A stretch of DNA of 5,949 nt, taken from IMG/VR virus record IMGVR_UViG_3300045988_009401; one strand, written 5' to 3'. The translations under genes were made by a program, and so were the position numbers. The notes beneath the pieces were generated by a model that was not told where the DNA came from, did not search any database, and worked only from the letters and a program-made list of their open reading frames with translations. The DNA is from a virus. Below are positions 1-5,949 of this stretch, piece after piece (the stretch's first letter is position 1; each line of letters starts with the position of its first letter).

Positions 1-569
1 ATTTTTTTTGTAACATACCCTGCAACATATCTATATGTTTCAGGTGTTGCTTGTGCGATCTGAATTTGACCGTTTCCCCATAGCTTTTCTAGCCATTCAC
101 TTGTATAGTATCCGTTGTGATGGATTTTATATAGCTGTTTAAGATCTTCCGGTTTCCATCCGTACAGTATCATATGGTAGTGCGGCCTTGCTGTTTGCTC
201 TCCATATTCTCCTGCACAGAAGAATCTCAACTGCTTCTTGTATGCTTTTCTGAGCCTTTTCAAGAATTTTTGCACGTCTGTGTATAGTAATGTTTGTACA
301 CTTTCCGGCTTTTTTTCGCCCGGTTTCCATACATATTGTACTTTTCTTAATAACTCTCCTGTTTTGAGAATCATTCCCGGAACATGTTCATCGTCATATG
401 TCAGCGTAATAAACCAGACTTGATCTTTCGGCCATTGTCTCGCCTCTAGTTCAATTCTTGTTGCCCAGTCCTCCCTTTGTTGTATTCTACATCCGATGCA
501 TTGCCCGCAAGGTATTAACATAACTCTTGGGTTATACAACAAATCTTCATATTTCAGTTTTTTGCCCAT
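1..569 (-). CDS. VP4: Replication initiator protein (rolling-circle Rep, gokushovirus VP4), N-terminal 189 codons. The ORF continues across the circular junction into 5850..5493, giving about 308 aa in total.
   Basis: I translated the minus-strand frame whose codons sit at + positions 3-5, 6-8 and so on. It is open from the ATG at 569..567 down through position 3 and joins the 119-aa ORF 5852..5493 in frame. The translation carries the Microviridae Rep motifs: PCGQCIGCR (CxxCxxC), WFITLTYDDEH (motif 1), RPHYHMILYG (motif 2, HxH), and YRYVAGYVTKK (motif 3, the catalytic Tyr pair). The first in-frame ATG is at 569; the next in-frame stop upstream is at 833..831. Confidence 0.9.
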   Translation of the reverse strand, partial: MGKKLKYEDLLYNPRVMLIPCGQCIGCRIQQREDWATRIELEARQWPKDQVWFITLTYDDEHVPGMILKTGELLRKVQYVWKPGEKKPESVQTLLYTDVQKFLKRLRKAYKKQLRFFCAGEYGEQTARPHYHMILYGWKPEDLKQLYKIHHNGYYTSEWLEKLWGNGQIQIAQATPETYRYVAGYVTKK

Positions 570-608
570 TCTTTCAGAAAACCGGGCAAGTGAATATACT
601 TGCCCGGT
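570..608 (-). terminator. Hairpin plus U-tract between the VP2 stop and the VP4 start, a candidate intrinsic terminator or attenuator.
   Basis: The arms ccgggcaagt (582..591) and acttgcccgg (598..607) form a perfect 10-11-bp stem with a 6-nt loop. On the minus-strand RNA the stem is followed by UUUUCUGAAAGA and then the VP4 AUG at 569. Confidence 0.5.
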
Positions 609-664
609 AATTTCTTTGTCGTCTGGGCTGTATATCCGAATTAACGGCTTATAACAGCTCACTT

Positions 665-1558
665 TTATTTTCTCCTTCCTGCACCGCCACCGGCTTTGTT
701 CCTGTTGCCTGTGATGTTGTCGAGTCCGTGGCCGCTTCTTACGTTGTCCATGGCTTTGTTTACGTTTCCCCTTAATTTTTTGCCTTCTTTTCTTCCTGCT
801 CCTACGGCGTCGTTGATCGCGTTGCCTGTTTTACTGCCGATTTTGGACAGTGTTTCCTGCAATCCAAGCGGTGTCATTCCTGTACTGCTTAACATCTGAT
901 TCCAGCTTTGCGCGGCGTTGTACCAGTCACTTTGCGACCAGCTTTCACTTGAATAGGAGTTAGGCACGAAACCGGATGCTCTGCTTACTCCCAGCGCACT
1001 TGACGATGGTGCACCCATGCTTGCGCCTGAGATCGTTCCTGCGCTGCCTCCCGGCGTGCTTGCGCCGCCGTTCTGGAATGCTAATATAGGATTAAGCCCT
1101 GCTTTTTTCATGTCTTCTACGGCCCTCTGATATGCCGTGTTGGACATGTGTTCTTGCCATTCCCTATCTTTCATGGCTTCTGTGCTGTTAAAATTCATTG
1201 CTGCCGCGTTTTCGATGTGGTTATATATTCCCTGCATGATTGCGCCTAGGGTGTTATAACCCATCTGCTCCAGCATAGACCTTTGGTTAAATTGGCTCTG
1301 TCGTGCTCCTTCTGCGCCCTGGTATTGGTATGCACCTTTCAGATACTGCATTACTAGTTCGTCATTGGTTCCGGATTTGCTCATGCTTAGGCTTTGCCCG
1401 CCGCCCTGCTGTGTGCTTCCTCCCTGGCTCTGGCTTTGTCCTACCTGACCCCATGCACCGAATGCGCTTCCCAGTGATCCTATCGCATTTCCTACGGTTC
1501 CGATTGTTCCGGCCACTTTTCCGATTGTTCCCAGTGCTCCTAATAGTGATAGTGCCAT
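665..1558 (-). CDS. VP2: Minor capsid / DNA pilot-like protein (gokushovirus VP2-like), 297 aa, Gly- and Gln-rich.
   Basis: The ORF lies immediately downstream of VP1, which is the canonical gokushovirus VP1-VP2 order. It starts with ATG at 1558..1556. The composition is Gly/Ser/Gln-rich and low in complexity, as expected for a VP2/pilot protein. The stop is TAA at 667..665. Confidence 0.7.
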   Translation of the reverse strand: MALSLLGALGTIGKVAGTIGTVGNAIGSLGSAFGAWGQVGQSQSQGGSTQQGGGQSLSMSKSGTNDELVMQYLKGAYQYQGAEGARQSQFNQRSMLEQMGYNTLGAIMQGIYNHIENAAAMNFNSTEAMKDREWQEHMSNTAYQRAVEDMKKAGLNPILAFQNGGASTPGGSAGTISGASMGAPSSSALGVSRASGFVPNSYSSESWSQSDWYNAAQSWNQMLSSTGMTPLGLQETLSKIGSKTGNAINDAVGAGRKEGKKLRGNVNKAMDNVRSGHGLDNITGNRNKAGGGAGRRK

Positions 1559-1586
1559 TTAAAAAATAGCCGGGATTTCTCCCGGC
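1559..1586 (-). terminator. GC-rich hairpin with a GAAA tetraloop and a U6 tract between VP1 and VP2, a candidate attenuator or terminator.
   Basis: On the + strand, gccggga (1569..1575), tttc, tcccggc (1580..1586) form a 7-bp stem with 6 GC pairs. The minus-strand RNA reads GCCGGGA-GAAA-UCCCGGC followed by UAUUUUUUAA and then the VP2 AUG. The SD-like GAAAGGAGGA at 1588..1597 lies 5' of the hairpin. Confidence 0.55.
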
Positions 1587-1597
1587 ATCCTCCTTTC

Positions 1598-3262
1598 TTA
1601 CAGCTTATACAGTCCCGGCACGCTATAAAGCGGCATTCTGCGCGTGGTATTGTTTGCTACGCGGATTGCACCGAAAAATTGTGGTTCATTCTGTTCGATC
1701 AGTGTTCTTGCAATCTCTGCTTTTCCTTCTACCATCCATTCTTGCGACAGTGTAGGAACGGTTGCGTAGTTATCAGCGTAGTGCCAGAAGTCCAACGTAC
1801 CTTCTGCGTTGCTTCTCATAAGGCCGCTAACGCGGTTCGGTTTCATCCGGTAGTCTGCCCATGCTTCCTGATAGCCGAATGTCTCTTCGTCGGTCGCATC
1901 ACCTGTGAGCATGATCTCCTTCTTTTTTACCGGCTGTTCGCCTAGATTTGCAAACTGCGGCACGTAATAGTCTAGCCTGTCTTGTCTGCTCCAAAAGCGC
2001 TCAAGACCCTGCTGATAGCTGTGATTGTGTCTCACACATGCAACGCCAATTACGAAACCGTGCTCTTCAAAACTTTTTGTGAAAGAGCTTTCGTTGATAG
2101 GTGTAACGGACATTGCGCCTGTTTCACCGATAGGCGTGTCGTTGTTTGCCTGTTGGCCGCTGGTCTGCACGATCTGGTTGATGTTGACATGATATCTGCC
2201 TCCGCCTAGATACTCAGGCACCTGTACCGTTTTATCCGAAATGACAACGTCCCAAATTGCCTGTACCTGCTCACGATATCTGGAACCGCCCCGTGCCAGC
2301 GCCTCATAGTACTGTTGCACGCTGATGGCCTGTCGTAACTGGTTGACAGTTGTTTTTGCTCCTGTTGCTGTTTTGTCTCCTGTAAGATTTACGTACAGAT
2401 TGCCTTGATTTACTTGTGTTCCGCCTGATGTTGTTGCGCCTGTTACTGTTGCCGCACTGCCGCCGCCGCCGTCAATTGTACCTGTTGCAAATCCACTACC
2501 GTTCATGAAGATTGTGCCTTTTGGGTTCAGTCCGGCTAGATCTCTTAATTCTACCGGGTACAATCCACCTAACTGAATTGTCACCTCTGGTCCACGCTGA
2601 GGATAAGGTAAACAGGATGTGAAATAGTCATGAAACTTGTTCACCGGTAAAAGATTACCGCCTGTTACCGCTTCCTGCAGTTCTTTTTCCATCGTGTCTT
2701 TTTCGCCGGTGCTCATGGCGTATATCACATCTTCATCGTCACTTTTCAGGACTGCAGCGTTGCCTACGTTTTCGTCCCTGAAGAACTCGTTCCAGATTTT
2801 CACATACGCTCTGATAGGCAGTGCGTTGATGCTGAAAGGCTTTTTCACCTTCGTAGGTACGCCCATGTAGTCCAGAATGGACTTTTCATCCGGTGCCGGT
2901 TTTTCATTCGTCCCGTTGATTTTGATTTGCGGTACCGTGTAGTTTTTTGTTGGCATCCACGGCCTTTCTTCCACTTCGCCCATGAAATGCTTGAAATTGT
3001 CCCACAGGATCCGGTTAGGACAGTAGAAATAATAGAAATCGATAAAGCTATCGTCCATTACCGGATATTTGGGAGTCGTCATACGGATAATGGCCTGTGT
3101 GTCAACGCTGAACGTATCGCCCGGTAGGACTTCATCCACGTAAAATGGAATTAGTTTTCCTGCGTCAAATGTGGTCAGGATAATTTGGTCTCGATTGAAT
3201 CGCGTTCGGCTTGCTTTCATCTGTGGAATTTGATTAAAATGCCGCTCGTTATTCCTGTTCAT
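1598..3262 (-). CDS. VP1: Major capsid protein VP1 (Microviridae F-like, gokushovirus type), 554 aa.
   Basis: The N-terminal region reads RFNRDQIILTTFDAGKLIPFYVDEVLPGDTF, matching the conserved gokushovirus VP1 signature (TTFDAG.LIP...DEVLPGDTF). The length is typical. The start is ATG at 3262..3260, preceded by GGAAGGAGA eight nt upstream. The stop is TAA at 1600..1598. Confidence 0.95.
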   Translation of the reverse strand: MNRNNERHFNQIPQMKASRTRFNRDQIILTTFDAGKLIPFYVDEVLPGDTFSVDTQAIIRMTTPKYPVMDDSFIDFYYFYCPNRILWDNFKHFMGEVEERPWMPTKNYTVPQIKINGTNEKPAPDEKSILDYMGVPTKVKKPFSINALPIRAYVKIWNEFFRDENVGNAAVLKSDDEDVIYAMSTGEKDTMEKELQEAVTGGNLLPVNKFHDYFTSCLPYPQRGPEVTIQLGGLYPVELRDLAGLNPKGTIFMNGSGFATGTIDGGGGSAATVTGATTSGGTQVNQGNLYVNLTGDKTATGAKTTVNQLRQAISVQQYYEALARGGSRYREQVQAIWDVVISDKTVQVPEYLGGGRYHVNINQIVQTSGQQANNDTPIGETGAMSVTPINESSFTKSFEEHGFVIGVACVRHNHSYQQGLERFWSRQDRLDYYVPQFANLGEQPVKKKEIMLTGDATDEETFGYQEAWADYRMKPNRVSGLMRSNAEGTLDFWHYADNYATVPTLSQEWMVEGKAEIARTLIEQNEPQFFGAIRVANNTTRRMPLYSVPGLYKL

Positions 3263-3647
3263 TTTTCATGTCTCCTTCCTTCGCTGCTTCTTCCGGTGCT
3301 TTCTCCTGCATTTCCTGCAGTGCCAGTGCGTTTGCCTGCGCTGTTGCGATCATTCTGTGATACTCGTGGATGTTCTGCGGCCATTCCGTGATATCTACCT
3401 CTGTGCCGTCCAGCGCTCCCTGTGAAAGACTCTGCATAAACTGCGGGTCAAATGATGCTTTTCGGACAATGTTTTTAATGTCGCATTCATCTGCATAGCT
3501 CTCGATTTCGCCCTGGATGTCGATGCTTTCAGTCTCCTGAAGGTATTCCTCATTTTCTTTGTTTTTTGCCCATACGTATTGTTTACGCTGGGTTTCGCCT
3601 GATGCAGAAAAGAGGGGCGTGCGCCCCTCTTCATATCTCTTATTCAT
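3249..3647 (-). CDS. VP3-like protein (putative internal scaffolding protein), acidic, about 132 aa from the ATG at 3647. The track's longer form starts at TTG 3707.
   Basis: The ORF lies immediately upstream of VP1 and overlaps it by 14 nt. It has an acidic, Glu-rich C-terminus. The ATG at 3647..3645 has the SD GGGAGGG eight nt upstream and sits 2 nt after the stop of the preceding 79-aa gene. The 152-aa form in the ORF track begins with TTG (3707..3705) and would overlap the upstream gene by 68 nt. I do not recognise any motif in it. Confidence 0.5.
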   Translation of the reverse strand: MNKRYEEGRTPLFSASGETQRKQYVWAKNKENEEYLQETESIDIQGEIESYADECDIKNIVRKASFDPQFMQSLSQGALDGTEVDITEWPQNIHEYHRMIATAQANALALQEMQEKAPEEAAKEGDMKNEQE

Positions 3648-3879
3648 GCGGCTTGCCCTCCCATGCCTTTTCCTTGTCGTTCTGAAATTCGCCGGTTTCG
3701 TCTTCAAACTGTGCCAGCTTGTAACCCACGTAATCGGCTGGGGACTGCCCGATGAACGTGTTCTCGTCCTTCTGCATTACGTTGCACATCCGTGCGAATG
3801 TTTCATTGTTTTTGCTTTCACCTACCCATGCGTAGCACTTCGCTACTTTGTCGTAGATACCATAGTAATTGCTAATCAT
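3640..3879 (-). CDS. Hypothetical acidic protein, 79 aa.
   Basis: ATG at 3879..3877. Lys codons of the upstream gene form an AAAGGA SD 7 nt upstream. The stop is TAA at 3642..3640. The gene is tightly coupled to its neighbours. It has no transmembrane segment and no recognisable motif. Confidence 0.5.
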   Translation of the reverse strand: MISNYYGIYDKVAKCYAWVGESKNNETFARMCNVMQKDENTFIGQSPADYVGYKLAQFEDETGEFQNDKEKAWEGKPHE

Positions 3880-4018
3880 CTTTTTTTCCTTTCTTTTAGA
3901 GCCGAATCCCGCCGCGCATAGGTTTCTGGCTCAAGTTGATGCTTTTGGTTTTCCGCGCGGTTACGTTAAACATGCGCTTATCTTTGTTGCCGTTCATGAC
4001 TTTACGATGTCGTGCCAT
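3872..4018 (-). CDS. Small, highly basic Arg/Lys-rich peptide, 48 aa. It is a candidate DNA-binding/packaging protein, analogous to phiX174 J or gokushovirus ORF8.
   Basis: This ORF is absent from the ORF track because it is shorter than 60 aa. I translated it by hand as MARHRKVMNGNKDKRMFNVTRRKTKSINLSQKPMRGGIRLKKKGKKDD. ATG at 4018..4016 with a strong SD, GAGGAGAGGG, 7 nt upstream. The stop TAG at 3874..3872 overlaps the next gene's start region. It fills the otherwise empty 122-nt gap between two genes. Confidence 0.6.
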
Positions 4019-4229
4019 TATAGTACCCTCTCCTCATCAGCTCTAGCTCGATAGCGTTGGCAAAGTTTTTGCACTGCCAGATCTCATCAATCATTTTCTT
4101 TGCGGTTTCTTTTTCGTTAATTTCTCGCAGGAGCTTGTAATCGTTTTGGATTTCTTTATATTTCTTCTCAAGCAGTTCGGATAAATTTTTTTCGGTCTGG
4201 TCTCTGACATTCCATGGTTTTGCAATCAT
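4002..4229 (-). CDS. Hypothetical protein, 75 aa, predicted helical/coiled-coil, Lys/Glu-rich.
   Basis: ATG at 4229..4227 with SD AAGGAG 9 nt upstream. The stop is TAA at 4004..4002. It is tightly packed against its neighbours. No motif recognised. Confidence 0.5.
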   Translation of the reverse strand: MIAKPWNVRDQTEKNLSELLEKKYKEIQNDYKLLREINEKETAKKMIDEIWQCKNFANAIELELMRRGYYNGTTS

Positions 4230-4235
4230 CTTTGT

Positions 4236-4352
4236 TTACTCCTTTTCGTTCGGCTGGTCGTGTAGGGCATGGTAGATCTCGTCCAGCTTTTCCAGAATCT
4301 GCATCATGATTTTGATAGCCTGTTTGACGTCTTTAATACTGATAAGAGCCAT
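4236..4352 (-). CDS. Small hypothetical peptide, 38 aa (MALISIKDVKQAIKIMMQILEKLDEIYHALHDQPNEKE). Alternatively a 65-aa form from the ATG at 4433, which overlaps the peptidase gene.
   Basis: The ATG at 4352..4350 lies 4 nt after the peptidase stop codon (4359..4357), with SD AAGGGGGT 8 nt upstream. The 65-aa form in the track starts at the ATG at 4433, which sits inside the peptidase coding sequence in another frame. Confidence 0.4.
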   Translation of the reverse strand: MALISIKDVKQAIKIMMQILEKLDEIYHALHDQPNEKE

Positions 4353-4356
4353 TTGC

Positions 4357-4746
4357 TTACACCCCCTTTCTGTATGTTTTGGTGCGCGTGTCGATGTGCA
4401 CCCATGTATTGTATACGATGATGCCGCATCCATTTGGGATGATTTTCTTCAGTTTGTTGGCAATTTCTTTTGCGGTCATGCCATCAACTCGAATGTCTGC
4501 GGCCATTCCCCGCATGTGATATGAGTATTTTGCACCGCCCACCGCTTTATTCCTTGTCGGTGTCCGGTATCCGCTGTTTATGTGTACCGGCTTTCCAACT
4601 TGGTTTCTGAGAATGTCCAGAATCGATACAAGGTAGTCATCTATGAAAACTATCTGAGAACCGTCTCTGCAAGCAAATTCCTTTACTTTGAAGTGCTTTC
4701 CAACGTTTTCGTTTGCGTCTGTGTCCATGATATAGCATTTAATCAT
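4357..4746 (-). CDS. Zinc metallopeptidase of the Peptidase_M15_3 / M15A family (VanY/YcbK-like peptidoglycan peptidase, a putative endolysin). About 129 aa from the ATG at 4746; the track form starts at TTG 4755.
   Basis: The translation contains the family signature SGYRTPTRNKAVGGAKYSYHMRGMAADI ... WVHIDTR. That is an SxHxxGxAxD zinc-binding block plus a C-terminal HxD/H ligand, preceded by FACRDG. The ATG at 4746..4744 follows AAAGGA. The track ORF starts 9 nt upstream at TTG 4755..4753. The stop is TAA at 4359..4357. Confidence 0.85.
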   Translation of the reverse strand: MIKCYIMDTDANENVGKHFKVKEFACRDGSQIVFIDDYLVSILDILRNQVGKPVHINSGYRTPTRNKAVGGAKYSYHMRGMAADIRVDGMTAKEIANKLKKIIPNGCGIIVYNTWVHIDTRTKTYRKGV

Positions 4747-4751
4747 TCTTG

Positions 4752-4970
4752 TCAATTCCTTTTTACTACAGCTACGTCTTCTAAGAATTTTTTTTCTACC
4801 TTGTACAGTCCATCTTCGTCTAGCTCATTTCCTAACTCGAATGCGTATTTTCTGCAGATGATTTTATCACTCTTCCTGTATAGCTTTTCGTAGTTGTACT
4901 TTTTTCCCATCATGTATCCGAAAAAATCGAGTTCTATATAATTTTGTTCGCGCACGTAGACTTTTTTCAT
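4752..4970 (-). CDS. Hypothetical protein, 72 aa, the first gene downstream of the promoter.
   Basis: ATG at 4970..4968 with GGAAGG SD 8 nt upstream, lying 33 nt downstream of the predicted -10. The stop is TGA at 4754..4752, 6 nt before the peptidase ATG. The protein is Lys/Tyr/Glu-rich with no transmembrane segment and no recognised motif. Confidence 0.5.
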   Translation of the reverse strand: MKKVYVREQNYIELDFFGYMMGKKYNYEKLYRKSDKIICRKYAFELGNELDEDGLYKVEKKFLEDVAVVKRN

Positions 4971-5002
4971 GGTGTTTACCTTCCTTTCTTTTCTGTGACT
5001 TA

Positions 5003-5031
5003 ATTATATCACATGTCAATACCTTTTTCAA
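5003..5031 (-). promoter_or_regulatory. Sigma70-type promoter on the minus strand that drives the gene cassette.
   Basis: On the minus strand the -35 is TTGAAA (5031..5026). A 17-nt spacer ending in TGA supplies the TGn of an extended -10. The -10 is a perfect TATAAT (5008..5003). The predicted start lies near 4996, and the first ATG is at 4970 behind a GGAAGG SD. Confidence 0.55.
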
Positions 5032-5076
5032 TCTTTTCGTCTCTTTGTAATAATTTGTAACCTTTCCTAGGACAGG

Positions 5077-5160
5077 AGCGCCGTTAGACTCCCGCCCTCA
5101 GGCGCTCATTTTGATAAGACCGGCAAGGCCGGTCAGACTGTCGGCGCGCTCCGTCAGACT
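5077..5160. repeat. GC-rich cluster of inverted and direct repeats upstream of the promoter, operator-like.
   Basis: An inverted repeat gagcgcc (5077..5083) / ggcgctc (5101..5107) has a 17-bp spacer. A second inverted repeat gaccggc-aag-gccggtc spans 5118..5134. Direct repeats GTCAGACT occur at 5132..5139 and 5153..5160, 21 bp apart, and a related GTTAGACT at 5083..5090. Confidence 0.6.
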
Positions 5161-5196
5161 TTGTCGTCTCCGCTCACCCTACTTTATTTGCCGTTC

Positions 5197-5352
5197 TTTC
5201 AACAGTTTCCACCGACTTTTCAACATTTCAACATTGTTAAACTTTATCACAACAGAGTGTTTCAACATTTCAACAAGTTTTCAACAAATCTTTCAACGTT
5301 TGTTTTTACCTTTTTCTAACGTTTTAACGTTCAAATTTATCTGTTTTCAACT
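5197..5352. repeat. Iteron-like array of about 9 TTTCAAC(A/G) octamers.
   Basis: TTTCAACA occurs at 5197, 5218 and 5226 (a tandem pair), at 5260 and 5268 (a tandem pair), and at 5279. TTTCAACG occurs at 5291, degenerate TTTTAACG and TTCAAA at 5322-5336, and TTTCAACT at 5345. The pattern is not CRISPR-like: the units are 8 bp and there are no spacers. Confidence 0.7.
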
Positions 5353-5397
5353 TTTCCACGTACTCTACTACTACGGCTACAACAAGTTATATAATAT

Positions 5398-5443
5398 TAC
5401 GCGTGCGCGTGTGCGCGCGTCTACGCGTGCGCGTGTGCGCGCG
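5398..5443. repeat. Tandem direct repeat, 2 x 21 nt, of perfectly alternating purine-pyrimidine CG/TG sequence (Z-DNA-prone) separated by tct.
   Basis: acgcgtgcgcgtgtgcgcgcg appears at 5399..5419 and again at 5423..5443. Each copy alternates Pu-Py strictly over 21-22 nt. The AT-rich ttatataatatt lies immediately 5' at 5387..5398. Confidence 0.8.
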
Positions 5444-5481
5444 AATAAAGCCCAGTACCTTACTTGATAGGTACTGGGCTT
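5443..5481 (-). terminator. 13-bp hairpin 11 nt after the VP4 stop. It is a candidate terminator and/or an origin hairpin.
   Basis: aagcccagtacct (5448..5460) and aggtactgggctt (5469..5481) form a perfect stem with an 8-nt loop, tacttgat. On the minus-strand RNA the stem is followed by UAUUCG, which gives a weak U-run, UUUAUU. The loop together with the adjacent base reads ACTTGATA on the + strand. Confidence 0.4.
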
Positions 5482-5492
5482 GGTGACACCGA

Positions 5493-5949
5493 TTAGAGTA
5501 TACCGCTTTTTTTCGTTTGTTTTTTGGTAACGCGTTCTTTTGCTTCTAATTGTGTTTTGTAATCTTGTCCTTCCAACTGCAGTCTTTTCTGCTCTATGGC
5601 TTTTCTCTGTCTGTTTTGCTTGATCCTCCACAGCCTTTCCGGGTTTTCTTTTTCCATCATCTTTTCATAGTATCGCGGTATTTGCGCCTTTTTGCCATTA
5701 GTGCATTGAATGTAGCCTTGTCTCCATATTTCTTCTTTGTGCTCTTGATAGTAAAGATCACCCAGTCCCGGCTTAAGTGACATACACGCGAACGGTTTTT
5801 GTTGACCTAGATCATAATATGCATTTGCTTTCTTTCCGTCAATTTCATACATTTTTTTTGTAACATACCCTGCAACATATCTATATGTTTCAGGTGTTGC
5901 TTGTGCGATCTGAATTTGACCGTTTCCCCATAGCTTTTCTAGCCATTCA
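5493..5949 (-). CDS. VP4: Replication initiator VP4, C-terminal part. Positions 5851..5949 duplicate 1..99, so this is the same gene as feature 1..569 read through the circular junction. The stop codon TAA is at 5495..5493.
   Basis: The 119-aa ORF 5493..5852 of the track extends in frame, with no stop, through the 99-bp terminal redundancy. It contains KPFACMSLKPGLG, typical of Microviridae Rep C-termini. The ATG at 5852 that the track used as a start is an internal Met. Confidence 0.88.
   Translation of the reverse strand, partial: EWLEKLWGNGQIQIAQATPETYRYVAGYVTKKMYEIDGKKANAYYDLGQQKPFACMSLKPGLGDLYYQEHKEEIWRQGYIQCTNGKKAQIPRYYEKMMEKENPERLWRIKQNRQRKAIEQKRLQLEGQDYKTQLEAKERVTKKQTKKSGIL
5851..5949. 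repeat. 99-bp terminal redundancy, an exact copy of 1..99. It marks the circular genome closure.
   Basis: I compared the two ends base by base: 5851..5949 is identical to 1..99. Confidence 0.97.

Follow-up and report, generated by a model that had tools for sequence, protein, structure and literature searches.

A conserved origin-like cassette of variable orientation in the intergenic region of a gut gokushovirus genome

Introduction

The viral DNA of IMG/VR record IMGVR_UViG_3300045988_009401, analysed here over its full length of 5949 nucleotides (the window), raises two questions: whether it represents an atypical, expanded lineage of the Microviridae with a novel six-gene accessory cassette, as a preliminary description had proposed, and what the long non-coding region beside its replication gene may do.

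Genome closure and classification

Bases 1–99 (first copy, inside the VP4 gene) are repeated exactly and directly at 5851–5949 (second copy; 100% identity over 99 nt, spacing 5850). This repeat is the assembly overlap of a circular 5850 bp genome: the sequence was circularized at position 5850, whereupon a single VP4 ORF of 339 amino acids spans the junction with the Rep intact. Concatemeric or chimeric microvirus contigs do occur in public assemblies (L211 and L212), but the window holds exactly one unit plus 99 nt and is colinear over its whole length with 5.6–5.9 kb records deposited as circular. Neither flanking host DNA nor other non-phage sequence is present, and a search of 185 579 species-representative bacterial genomes gave no integrated copy. 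A linear concatemer or prophage artefact, which the preliminary description had named as the case against a circular replicon, is thus exceedingly improbable.

VP1 matched the capsid profile PF02305 (E = 8e-135) and VP4 matched PF23343 (E = 7e-18) and phrog_942 (E = 1e-113). The signatures quoted earlier for a Gokushovirinae-type microvirus were all found, TTFDAGKLIPFYVDEVLPGDTF in VP1 and FITLTY, HYHMILYG and YVAGYVTKK in VP4. VP1 is 35–38% identical to VP1 of Chp2, phiMH2K and SpV4 (E of 1e-93 to 1e-114), and VP4 is 29–32% identical to their VP4; phiX174 F aligns with VP1 at 22% identity over 173 residues. The window is almost certainly one complete, circularly closed 5850 bp genome of a gut-associated member of the Gokushovirinae (Microviridae), from an abundant and already sequenced clade of 5.3–6.2 kb.

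The relatives include MG945430, MG945753, MG945383 and MG945781 (Microviridae sp.; pig and rhesus faeces), MZ821031 (human blood), Gokushovirus WZ-2015a (KT264793) and Human gut gokushovirus (KX513876 and KX513877); the intergenic motif of this genome recurs in more than 120 IMG/VR genomes. The gut relatives share the gene order, a length of 5.6–5.9 kb, the M15 peptidase (annotated in the first five records) and the intergenic layout with hairpin, GC-rich repeat, cassette and promoter; they differ in that orf72 is missing from almost all of them, and the intergenic elements are annotated in none of these records. For VP4, full-length alignments to its counterparts in circular GenBank relatives give 88–93% identity. 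At the DNA level the identity is 83–86% over 73–92% of the genome and, being below 90%, sets this genome apart at species level as a new member of a very abundant gut clade.

Gene content

The gene order is VP4, control region, a variable ORF, M15 peptidase, orf38, orf75, J-like basic protein, VP5, VP3, VP1 and VP2; all credible genes lie on the minus strand, as first described, and the gene coordinates below refer to that strand. The rolling-circle Rep VP4 is split by the window ends: its N-terminal 220 codons (1–662; GTG start at 662, Shine–Dalgarno sequence GGAAGGAG upstream) contain FITLTY and the HUH motif HYHMILYG, its C-terminal part occupies 5493–5850 (stop codon 5495–5493) and YVAGYVTKK spans the junction. 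VP2, the DNA pilot or minor capsid protein (665–1558, 297 residues; phrog_8742, E = 3e-107), and the major capsid protein VP1 (1598–3262, 554 residues) are followed by the internal scaffolding protein VP3 (3249–3647, 132 residues; PF09675, E = 6e-8). VP3 was assigned the ATG at 3647; in the longer ORF, the phrog_24309 match starts at residue 21. The 8 nt overlap of VP3 with VP5 (3640–3879, 79 residues; PF20577, E = 8e-12; phrog_1670), a core non-structural gokushovirus protein, is also present in relatives. A 40-residue basic protein (MARHRK...RGGIRL; 3896–4018; phrog_10695, E = 4e-10) is the ORF8 or protein-J-like DNA-binding core protein, present in 126 of 131 relatives.

orf75 (4002–4229) encodes a conserved coiled-coil-like protein with no assigned function, found in 85 relatives and annotated there as 'hypothetical protein'. 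The 65-residue ORF next to it is, as a real gene, the 38-residue orf38 (MALISIKDV...; 4236–4352), which starts from the ATG at 4352, has the Shine–Dalgarno sequence AAAGGGGG and lies 5 nt past the peptidase stop codon; its C-terminal part is conserved in 129 genomes and its N-terminal part in 49. The peptidase itself (4357–4746, 129 residues) is an endolysin-type zinc peptidase of family M15_3 (PF08291, E = 6e-24; phrog_894 endolysin, E = 8e-45; 1LBU) with the motifs SGYR...N..VGGA..S.HM.G.AAD and VHID. It has 1587 homologues, and the best 120 of these lie on contigs of at most 6.2 kb, bar two longer assembly artefacts. The first slot after the promoter is variable: here it holds the lineage-specific orf72 (4752–4970), matched in one relative only, and in relatives it holds other ORFs. 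Shine–Dalgarno sites are strong on nearly all genes.

With Chp2, phiMH2K and SpV4 the genome shares VP2, VP3, VP5 and the J-like protein, the lack of an external scaffold or spike gene and intergenic hairpins with ACTTG(A/T)T; those phages differ in size (4563, 4594 and 4421 bp, respectively), in gene order and in having no peptidase, box array or GAT-trio cassette, and phiMH2K has only the 10-mer ACTTGTTGTA in common with the cassette. An endolysin-type peptidase acquired horizontally, three small ORFs and the 522 nt control region make up the extra 1.3 kb relative to Chp2-type phages. This excess and the ORFs that have no Pfam match would speak for an atypical lineage. However, many colinear gut gokushoviruses of 5.3–6.2 kb with the same gene order and M15 peptidase are already public, M15_3 peptidases were reported in human-gut Gokushovirinae in 2012 and the assembled microvirus genomes of that study range from 3989 to 6723 bp (Roux et al., 2012; PMC3394797). 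Neither is the proposed accessory cassette one unit: two of its six ORFs (VP5 and the J-like protein) are core gokushovirus genes, three (peptidase, orf75 and orf38) are common across the clade and only orf72 is lineage-specific. Of its AT-rich character, a moderate bias at 4650–5100 stands (GC 0.36–0.37 versus about 0.45 overall). The atypical-lineage reading is refuted by the colinear relatives, the gene survey and the 2012 report, and we regard it as very unlikely.

Transcription signals and the control region

The best promoter match of the window is a sigma-70-type site, TTGAAA-17-TATAAT with a TG-extended −10 element (5003–5031, minus strand), conserved in relatives. This one strong promoter (5031–5003) would drive the gene train, and an intrinsic-terminator-like hairpin between VP1 and VP2 (GCCGGGA/TCCCGGC followed by TATTTTTT; 1569–1586, minus strand), reached past VP1 at 1586–1569, would lower VP2 and VP4 expression.

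The non-coding region extends over 522 nt (4971–5492). It is modular, comprising a gene-polarized hairpin, a GC-rich alternating repeat and a 200 nt non-coding cassette, for which functions are proposed below, and it also holds a GC-rich block and the near-consensus promoter. The preliminary description of a structured non-coding region of 520 bp held as to extent and lack of coding but not as to structure throughout. Folded as single-stranded DNA, the region is more stable than its shuffles (gene strand, z = −6.6; other strand, z = −4.5), a signal that comes from one hairpin and GC-rich repeats. The GC-rich block (5063–5191, minus strand), with AGTCTGAC repeats and small hairpins, is 80–91% conserved in many relatives and always kept in direct orientation; its own folding does not differ significantly from shuffles (z = −1.6). 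The alternating purine–pyrimidine GC-rich repeat (5398–5443, two 24 nt tandem copies) is of a type always positioned between hairpin and cassette.

The hairpin is perfect (5448–5481; 13 bp stem, 8 nt loop) and lies 11 nt past the VP4 stop codon. The loop sequence is ATCAAGTA on the gene strand and TACTTGAT on its complement, and the stem shows compensatory changes. In about 110 genomes the hairpin either follows the VP4 stop or precedes the start of VP4, with loop polarity fixed relative to the genes; the opposite polarity occurred in none of the 110.

The 200 nt cassette

The cassette (5197–5398) is 200 nt of non-coding DNA. It begins with an array of ten TTTC(A/C)AC boxes on the plus strand (5197–5360), which resemble DnaA boxes (TTTTCAACA and TTTTCCACG); the box nearest the trios is at 5352–5360. 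Next comes the near-invariant 22 nt motif CTTGTTGTAGCCGTAGTAGTAG (5365–5386, minus strand), in which three 3'-GAT-5' trios (5365–5373) adjoin the box and which also contains a phiX174-like AACTTG|TTG, a candidate for nicking of the minus strand between 5383 and 5382. An AT-rich stretch, AATATTATATAA (5387–5398), then occupies the position of a DNA unwinding element; the upstream AT-rich flank is 88% AT across 131 genomes.

In an unbiased VP1-based sample the exact 19-base motif was present in 65 of 73 genomes, and three of five genomes without the motif were contigs ending inside the cassette; in a box-anchored sample it was exact at 78 of 82 sites. The cassette is 75–83% identical where VP1 protein identity is as low as 45–55%. 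Boxes number 7.7 per cassette on one strand (mean) versus 0.22 on the other, with 1.6 outside the cassette, over 5.5 kb per genome. At the proximal position TTTTCCACA is the most frequent box, and the spacer between box and trios is 4 nt in 92 of 126 copies. Two features speak against a DnaA model: most boxes have A rather than C at position 6, and many are spaced by just 8–9 nt, tighter than in classical DnaA-box arrays.

Could the cassette instead be a gene? A plus-strand ORF (5111–5467, 118 residues) spans it in the window, and one relative (L135) has a promoter-like site, TTGACA-16-TATTAA, aimed into it. Of 131 copies, however, at most 7.6% are open in any one reading frame, the conservation is at the nucleotide level with would-be synonymous sites included and the upstream promoter-like site is not conserved; for a small RNA, there is no Rfam match and the cassette is essentially unstructured in the fold. 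An antisense small protein, largely refuted by the closed frames, or a small RNA has a very low probability.

Judged from its sequence, the cassette is organized like a bacterial DnaA-dependent basal unwinding system (BUS), strand polarity included. Such systems consist of DnaA boxes, DnaA-trios and an AT-rich element (Richardson et al., 2016 and 2019; Pelliciari et al., 2021), and the cassette agrees with their published definitions and examples. Both have tandem boxes aimed at the trios across a 4 nt spacer, further boxes upstream, and AT-rich DNA beyond the three consensus 3'-GAT-5' trios, which lie on the opposite strand. A strict pattern (a box with at most two mismatches, 0–16 nt, then three GAT) matched once in the window and in none of 300 shuffles; the published BUS search rule is permissive, with about 8.7 matches per shuffled genome. 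Box–box–4 nt–GATGATGAT arrangements are described for S. aureus, L. ruminis and S. coelicolor, and for C. pneumoniae AR39 the standard box is listed as TTTTCAACA (PMC8287927, PMC6669920).

Unlike a bacterial BUS, the cassette resides in a 5.85 kb single-stranded-DNA phage rather than beside dnaA/dnaN, its predicted DnaA boxes are packed at 8–12 nt, its near-invariant trio region overlaps a phiX174-like nick motif, and it occurs in both orientations and at two genomic positions. Iteron-type theta plasmid origins also have clustered short repeats in one orientation beside an AT-rich region; they differ in repeat length (17–22 nt versus 8–9 nt), and this genome has no gene for an iteron-binding initiator. 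Among the 185 579 bacterial genomes the cassette motif was found only in a mis-binned phage contig and one chance match, and PLSDB plasmids gave no match to the cassette, so nothing connects it directly with a host origin.

Orientation and strand

Of 130 genomes, 99 have the cassette on the gene strand and 31 (24%) have it reversed, with at least four independent flips; one relative (L011) shows a clean inversion between unchanged flanks. Composition at fourfold-degenerate sites does not flip with cassette orientation.

These observations bear on the possibility that the cassette is the phage's own plus-strand origin, at which VP4 would nick AACTTG|TTG as phiX174 gpA nicks CAACTTG|ATA, with DnaA uninvolved and with the TAG and GTTGAAA repeats as Rep recognition sequences or iterons. 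The candidate VP4 cleavage sequence is TATAACTTGTTGTAG. The phiX174 origin was verified as CCCCCAACTTG|ATATTAATAAC, and the cassette, with an AACTTG core beside AT-rich DNA, agrees with that decamer at 7 of 10 positions. phiMH2K carries the shared 10-mer in an intergenic hairpin loop on the coding strand, Chp2 and SpV4 carry intergenic ACTTGAT on the coding strand, and VP4 has the same HUH and Y-x3-Y-x-KK (double-tyrosine) motifs as gpA. The entire 22 nt motif is near-invariant, beyond what DnaA-trios need. HUH Reps of other single-stranded-DNA replicons are generally known to have iterons beside their nick sites. Yet the AT-rich DNA is 5' rather than 3' of the site, the site is intergenic rather than within the Rep gene, and the 31 of 130 phages with a reversed cassette would package the antisense strand, while their fourfold-site composition is unchanged and the neighbouring hairpin keeps its polarity. 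The repeat is invariant across Rep lineages (VP4 identity 37–93%), unlike Rep-specific iterons, and is a DnaA-box variant predicted in tandem (TTTTCAACA) in the oriC of Ruminococcus albus (PMC8287927, PMC6669920); one natural variant has ATTTG in place of ACTTG. A plus-strand origin is a serious contender, perhaps one chance in three. It is not fully exclusive of a DnaA-recruiting module.

A true Rep nick site might alternatively be the gene-locked hairpin (5448–5481), homologous to the Chp2 hairpin: TACTTG|AT would be cut on the strand complementary to the genes, the clade would package the antisense strand and the cassette would be an accessory duplex element. The loop on the window plus strand matches 8 of 10 positions of the phiX174 decamer, the same 8-mer is present in the loop of the 12 bp Chp2 hairpin (TCTACTTGAT), and the constant loop polarity and compensatory stem changes fit. 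So does composition, as the coding strand is T-poor and A-rich at fourfold sites (T 0.17, A 0.38) whereas phiX174, Chp2 and SpV4 have T-rich virion strands (0.51–0.65); phiMH2K, taken as positive-sense, is also A-rich, however, and composition is not decisive. The Chp2 ACTTGAT loop lies on the coding strand, that of this genome on the opposite strand. Moreover, the 8 nt match was noticed post hoc, and the hairpin, followed by TTTATT in the window, could simply be a VP4 terminator or an mRNA-stabilizing hairpin. To our knowledge, all characterized Microviridae are described as packaging the coding-sense strand. A nick in the hairpin is considered improbable. The initial statement that the window represents the strand complementary to the virion DNA follows family convention only and is complicated by candidate nick motifs on different strands and the T-poor coding strand.

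Discussion

We infer that the cassette recruits host DnaA and serves as a replication-origin module. DnaA would bind the boxes on the double-stranded replicative form, polymerize onto the trios and melt the adjoining AT-rich DNA, which also holds AACTTG|TTG; melting would then either give the HUH Rep access to the nick site or allow the host helicase to load. We give this mechanism an even chance. A self-contained unit acting on duplex DNA would explain why the cassette tolerates inversion and relocation. The 22 nt motif is far more invariant than DnaA-trios need, which suggests a second, sequence-specific reader such as the Rep.

The host is probably a Firmicute of the Ruminococcaceae type that uses Shine–Dalgarno sites, to judge from these sites, the extended −10 promoter and the affinity of gut Gokushovirinae peptidases, which are nearest to those of Faecalibacterium (PMC3394797). 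Taken together, we regard the account of identity, transcription, control region, mechanism and host given here as quite probable. The genome is ordinary; its novelty is a 522 nt intergenic region with a very conserved 200 nt origin-like cassette, the orientation of which differs among relatives.

Genome map and classification

Positions 1–99 of the window are identical to 5851–5949 over 99 nt at a spacing of 5850, and the Rep gene reads continuously over the junction. The genome unit is a small circle of 5850 bp with an exact 99-bp overlap, as proposed in the preliminary description, and after circularization each sizeable open reading frame was found on the minus strand, as was also stated there. 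The gene for VP4, a rolling-circle Rep of 339 residues, runs from a GTG at 662 over the junction to a stop at 5493 (PF23343, E = 7e-18; phrog_942, E = 1e-113), and its product contains both the HUH motif HYHMILYG and the paired-tyrosine motif YVAGYVTKK. The other minus-strand genes encode the pilot protein VP2 (1558–665; phrog_8742, E = 3e-107), the major capsid protein VP1 (3262–1598; PF02305, the Phage_F fold family, E = 8e-135), the internal scaffold VP3 (3647–3249; PF09675), VP5 (3879–3640; PF20577), a basic J/ORF8-like protein of 40 residues and DNA-binding type (4018–3896; phrog_10695), orf75 (4229–4002) and orf38 (4352–4236), both of which are kept in relatives, a peptidase (4746–4357; PF08291, E = 6e-24; phrog_894 endolysin) and orf72 (4970–4752). 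The 522 nt at 5492–4971 (minus strand) are non-coding and modular. A predicted intrinsic terminator of canonical form is located between VP1 and VP2 (1569–1586, minus strand). By reducing read-through into VP2 and VP4 it would fit a high level of capsid protein and a low level of Rep.

All of the gokushovirus peptide signatures cited in the preliminary description were found in the window. VP1 is 35–38% identical to the capsid proteins of the classical gokushoviruses Chp2, phiMH2K and SpV4 (E = 1e-93 to 1e-114), compared with 22% over 173 residues of phiX174 F, so that the placement in the Gokushovirinae (Microviridae) is secure. VP4 is 32% identical to Chp2 ORF4. No open reading frame matched the families of the phiX174-type external scaffold D or spike G in Pfam or PHROGs. 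When both strands were compared with Rfam at E ≤ 1, a chance match alone emerged (Termite-leu; 22 bits, gathering score 51), and no tRNA or tmRNA was found in the window.

Relatives and accessory genes

The genome had been assigned to an atypical or expanded lineage; this was not borne out, since relatives of equal layout are present in both GenBank and IMG/VR. Megablast against GenBank phages identified the circular genomes MG945430, MG945753, MG945383, MG945781 and MZ821031 (5.6–5.9 kb; pig, rhesus and human samples), which are 83–86% identical across 73–92% of the genome, have an equal gene order and carry an annotated peptidase. A VP1-based scan of IMG/VR yielded 170 relatives, of which the best 80 were 72–88% identical and mostly 5.3–6.2 kb in length.

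The peptidase scored 84.6 bits against PF08291 (gathering score 23.2) and contains the zinc-ligand motifs H-x6-D and H-x-D as SYHMRGMAAD and VHID, the first of which aligns with 1LBU. Profile and motifs together place the predicted product in family M15_3, a zinc D-Ala-D-Ala/L-Ala-D-Glu peptidase-type endolysin. At E ≤ 1e-10, 1587 homologues were retrieved; the top 120 lay on microvirus-sized contigs, with the exception of two longer assembly artefacts, a concatemer and a probable scaffold chimera, and as all were microvirus contigs these top matches gave no cellular signal for the host. M15_3 peptidases with nearest homologues in Faecalibacterium have been described in human-gut Gokushovirinae, in a study in which microvirus genomes of 3989–6723 bp were assembled (Roux et al., 2012; PMC3394797).

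What had been described as a six-gene accessory cassette resolved into two core genes, three clade-wide genes and a single lineage-specific gene. Among about 131 relatives, VP5 was present in 100 and the J-like protein in 126 (core), the peptidase in 92, orf75 in 85 and orf38 in 129 (clade-wide), and orf72 in one. The last of these occupies a variable slot directly after the promoter (4752–4970), which holds unrelated open reading frames in L019, L068 and L102 and none in L001. By analogy, a variable first slot after a conserved strong promoter is what moron or anti-defence-type loci show; no function was found for it. Another promoter-like site close to consensus (4727–4755, minus strand; TTGACA-17-TATCAT, 11 of 12 matches), also present in L001, overlaps both the last part of orf72 and the beginning of the peptidase gene. 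It may serve the lysis gene as an internal promoter, or it may simply result from the coding sequence.

The genome is a further species-level member of a well-sampled gut phage clade and alone changes little; the interest lies in the intergenic cassette.

Layout of the intergenic region

Read along the gene strand from the VP4 stop, the region consists of a hairpin with a perfect 13-bp stem and a loop of 8 nt (5481–5448), an alternating purine–pyrimidine GC-rich repeat in two 24-nt copies (5443–5398), an AT-rich cassette of 200 nt (5398–5197), a GC-rich block (5191–5063) and a promoter, TTGAAA-17-TATAAT with a TG extended −10 (5031–5003, minus strand). The promoter is the best sigma-70 match in the window and is followed by the Shine–Dalgarno sequence GGAAGG and the first ATG.

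The whole intergenic region folds better than its shuffles (z = −6.6 and −4.5 for the two strands). This signal comes from the hairpin and the GC-rich repeat, for which the earlier term 'structured' holds; the cassette lacks structure. Alone, the GC-rich block does not fold significantly (z = −1.6), and it was rejected as a structured element for that reason.

The GC-rich tract at 5398–5443 is of the (CG)n/(CA)n type and Z-DNA-prone. It always lies between hairpin and cassette, in either orientation of the cassette, and its exact sequence and copy number vary among relatives, with a G-run in its place in L006. The block at 5063–5191 contains three AGTCT(G/A)AC repeats and the small hairpins CCGGC-CTT-GCCGG and GAGCGCC...GGCGCTC; some genomes that are otherwise divergent have it conserved at 80–91%, and it is never inverted.

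Conservation and orientation of the cassette

A blastn search with the intergenic region matched 40 GenBank gokushovirus records, in nearly all of which the position is unannotated. The most widely shared part was the cassette core (5396–5197), which is 75–83% identical even where VP1 protein identity is down to 45–55%. The cassette was rejected as coding sequence, since in every frame at most 7.6% of the 131 copies are open. Within it, a 22-nt motif on the minus strand (5365–5386), CTTGTTGNAGNNGTAGTAGTAG, was found on at least 120 IMG/VR contigs, almost all of them microvirus-sized, and conservation runs past the searched bases into the AT-rich flank and the adjoining GTGGAAAAGTTGAAAA.

Two further samples served as ascertainment controls. 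In near-complete genomes selected by VP1 the motif was exact in 65 of 73, carried one or two mismatches in three and was absent from five, three of which are contigs cut within the cassette. The second sample was anchored on the box pair; the underlying 16-mer scan of IMG/VR gave mostly chance matches on long contigs, and the microvirus-sized matches alone were kept. Here, the motif was exact at 78 of 82 sites and the four variants were single substitutions (TAG to TAA twice, TAG to CAG and ACTTG to ATTTG).

In 185,579 species-representative bacterial genomes the motif was matched only by a mis-binned phage contig and one chance match, and a search for plasmid-origin homology of the cassette gave no match. 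A complete microvirus of 5739 bp (CAVKUS010000079.1) is deposited as a contig of the 'Bacteroides sp. CAG:545' MAG, most likely as a binning artefact rather than as host evidence. In ENA ERZ28660898 scaffold_2691 (10353 bp), a bacterial DUF2079 gene is fused within VP1 to a related microvirus that is present in about 1.6 tandem copies, and ERZ1305919 NODE_2598 (13193 bp) joins two different microviruses head-to-tail; both are probably assembly chimeras, though the former may represent an integration event.

Of 130 genomes, 99 have the cassette on the gene strand and 31 have it on the opposite one. In MG945388 only the 200 nt are flipped, with both flanks unchanged, and in the most distant clade the cassette is located just upstream of VP4, not downstream. 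Several clades include both orientations, from which a minimum of four independent inversions follows. Programmed invertible segments of the Hin/Gin/Cin type are bordered by inverted repeats of about 26 bp and come with an invertase gene; no inverted repeats flank 5197–5398 and the genome contains no recombinase gene. The inversions are evolutionary events, and nothing indicates a programmed switch.

The hairpin is an element separate from the cassette and is strand-locked. On the gene strand its loop always contains CAAG (ATCAAGTA or AGACAAGKA); it directly follows the VP4 stop in 82 of the 100 genomes with the same cassette orientation and is present in 28 of the 32 with the opposite orientation, mostly just before the VP4 ATG. 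The reverse loop polarity was never seen among these genomes. Changes in the stem are compensatory (CCC/GGG to CCA/TGG), and the loop opposite the genes reads TACTTGAT, an 8-mer equal to the Chp2 loop.

Resemblance to bacterial origins

On the plus strand of the window the cassette reads TTTTCAAC-TTTTCCACG-tact-CTA-CTA-CTA-cgg-CTA-CAA-CAA-G-TTATATAATATT, preceded on the same strand by eight further TTTC(A/C)AC boxes (ten in the window overall). This arrangement was compared with the bacterial basal unwinding system (BUS), which comprises DnaA boxes, DnaA-trios and an AT-rich element. The published definition calls for a box with at most two mismatches to TTATCCACA, 0–16 bp from the trios and pointing toward them (Pelliciari et al., 2021; PMC8287927). 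The proximal box TTTTCCACG (plus strand, 5352–5360) has two mismatches to TTATCCACA and a 4-nt spacer to the trios; the consensus and commonest proximal box among 131 cassettes, TTTTCCACA, has one mismatch and fits TT(A/T)TNCACA, and 92 of 126 cassettes share the 4-nt spacing. A tandem second box, TTTTCAACT, adjoins the proximal one and lies within the four mismatches allowed for this position. The trios, CTACTACTA at 5365–5373 of the plus strand, read as three GAT repeats on the other strand, in line with the minimum of three central-A repeats (consensus 3'-GAT-5') opposite the box strand; their natural variants are mostly GAT to AAT. Beyond them lies the AT-rich element TTATATAATATT (5387–5398); the upstream flank is 88% AT across 131 genomes.

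The published search rule was too permissive here (8.7 matches per shuffled genome) and a strict version was used instead (box with at most two mismatches, 0–16 nt, three GAT). It matched once in the window and in none of 300 shuffles. Exact TTTCMACA occurs six times in the window, all on one strand and within 90 nt, compared with 0.57 expected (0 of 200 shuffles). Across the 131 cassettes boxes average 7.7 on the motif strand versus 0.22 on the other, and 1.6 in the remaining 5.5 kb.

In the supplement to Pelliciari et al. (2021), Ruminococcus albus 7 is predicted to have tandem TTTTCAACA as its BUS boxes, TTTTCAACA is the standard box of Chlamydophila pneumoniae AR39, and the order box-box-4 nt-GATGATGAT is found in S. 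aureus, L. ruminis and S. coelicolor. The cassette thus shares with the BUS the layout of box, tandem boxes, spacer, trios and AT-rich element. Whereas the BUS of oriC is chromosomal and typically lies beside dnaA/dnaN, the cassette lies in a phage genome, and its motif is carried by none of the 185,579 species-representative bacterial genomes; it is therefore likened to a BUS and not classed as a member. The literature searched, which was incomplete so that a prior description is possible, contained no link of gokushoviruses or Microviridae to DnaA boxes or iterons.

Judged from sequence, the chances are about even that the cassette is a replication-origin module that recruits host DnaA and so acts on the replicative form while this is double-stranded. 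Melting by DnaA of the AT-rich DNA bearing the nick-like motif would serve Rep access or helicase loading. Such a module would explain the fixed box–spacer–trio geometry, the same-strand array, the host-type box and the tolerance of inversion. Strong Shine–Dalgarno sites, the extended −10 promoter and the Faecalibacterium-like peptidases of gut gokushoviruses hint at a Ruminococcaceae-type Firmicute host.

Candidate nick sites

The invariant stretch also includes TAACTTG/TTG, similar to the phiX174 origin CAACTTG/ATA (J02482), and a reading that overlaps with DnaA recruitment is that the cassette holds the nick site of Rep (VP4), the plus-strand origin. Near-invariance of all 22 nt exceeds the need of DnaA-trios and favours a sequence-specific reader such as Rep. 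Related sites are present on the coding strand, between genes, in the classical gokushoviruses: the 10-mer ACTTGTTGTA is found unchanged in a hairpin loop of phiMH2K, TCTACTTGAT in the loop above a 12-bp stem in Chp2, and AAACTTGATAAG in SpV4. These sites make ACTTG(A/T)T, by sequence comparison, a good candidate for a family-wide Rep nick site. However, the cassette flips, and if it were purely a Rep origin the packaged strand would switch with it; the composition of fourfold-degenerate sites is nevertheless equal in both orientations, and the repeat sequence is constant across Rep lineages. That the cassette holds the nick site is a tentative proposal, which we consider somewhat less probable than DnaA recruitment. 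Towards the phiX174 gpA decamer, a virion-strand sequence, the cassette site agrees at seven of ten positions and the opposite-strand loop of the hairpin at eight of ten, with a strand that is inconsistent among genomes. The conserved 30-nt origin of phiX174 lies within the Rep gene, inside gene A, whereas both candidates in the window are intergenic. Oligonucleotides representing the candidate nick sites are TATAACTTGTTGTAGCC, and CCTTACTTGATAGG with its complement CCTATCAAGTAAGG.

The ACTTG(A/T)T hairpins and sites of the reference phages are located at 3300–3360 in phiMH2K, where a second palindrome (CAGAAAC-TCAA-GTTTCTG) adjoins, at 2906–2940 in Chp2 and at about 1640 in SpV4; they are candidate origins, apparently unannotated in the records.

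VP4 itself contains a perfect hairpin of 11–12 bp at 581–608 (codons about 19–28), ACCGGGCAAGT-ATATTC-ACTTGCCCGGT, which is the only hairpin within the gene to include ACTTG and in which the sole, chance-level Rfam match falls. An ACTTG hairpin with a stem of at least 9 bp occurs here in only eight of 65 close relatives; L016 has a compensatory form (AGCGGG...CCCGCT), whereas the hairpins that other clades form at this position of VP4 are different ones.

As to which strand is packaged, base composition and the strands of the candidate motifs give ambiguous hints. At VP1 fourfold sites the coding strand is strongly A-rich and T-poor (A 0.38 and T 0.17; AT skew +0.33 to +0.62 in every clade), unlike the T-rich virion strands of phiX174, Chp2 and SpV4 (0.51–0.65), from which antisense packaging in this clade is given a low probability. 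However, phiMH2K is A-rich like the present clade, so that composition is not decisive. As a test of the packaged strand, fourfold composition was discarded as uninformative, given that it does not differ with cassette orientation and that the reference phages disagree. Host codon usage, or which strand spends time single-stranded, may underlie the A-rich bias.

In a large group of gut gokushoviruses both functions could be joined in a portable 200-nt oriC mimic fused to a Rep nick motif, with host DnaA opening the replicative form and with orientation setting the nicked and packaged strand, or with plasmid-like DnaA-driven maintenance. We consider this combination unlikely.

Biological implications

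To our knowledge, no gokushovirus replication origin has been defined experimentally. The cassette is a precise, conserved and testable candidate, offering two or three nick-site oligonucleotides, one box–spacer–trio geometry and natural inverted variants. If orientation decides packaging, about a quarter of the phages in the clade would be negative-sense microviruses; plasmid-like DnaA-driven maintenance of the replicative form, if it occurs, could explain long-term persistence without integration. If DnaA takes part, no single-stranded-DNA phage would have been shown before this one to draw on the origin-unwinding system of bacteria, and the box variant TTTTCAACA would serve as a marker to predict the hosts of phages lacking assigned ones. 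With a conserved, flipping, oriC-like cassette in hand, the origin of gokushovirus replication is now a directly testable question.
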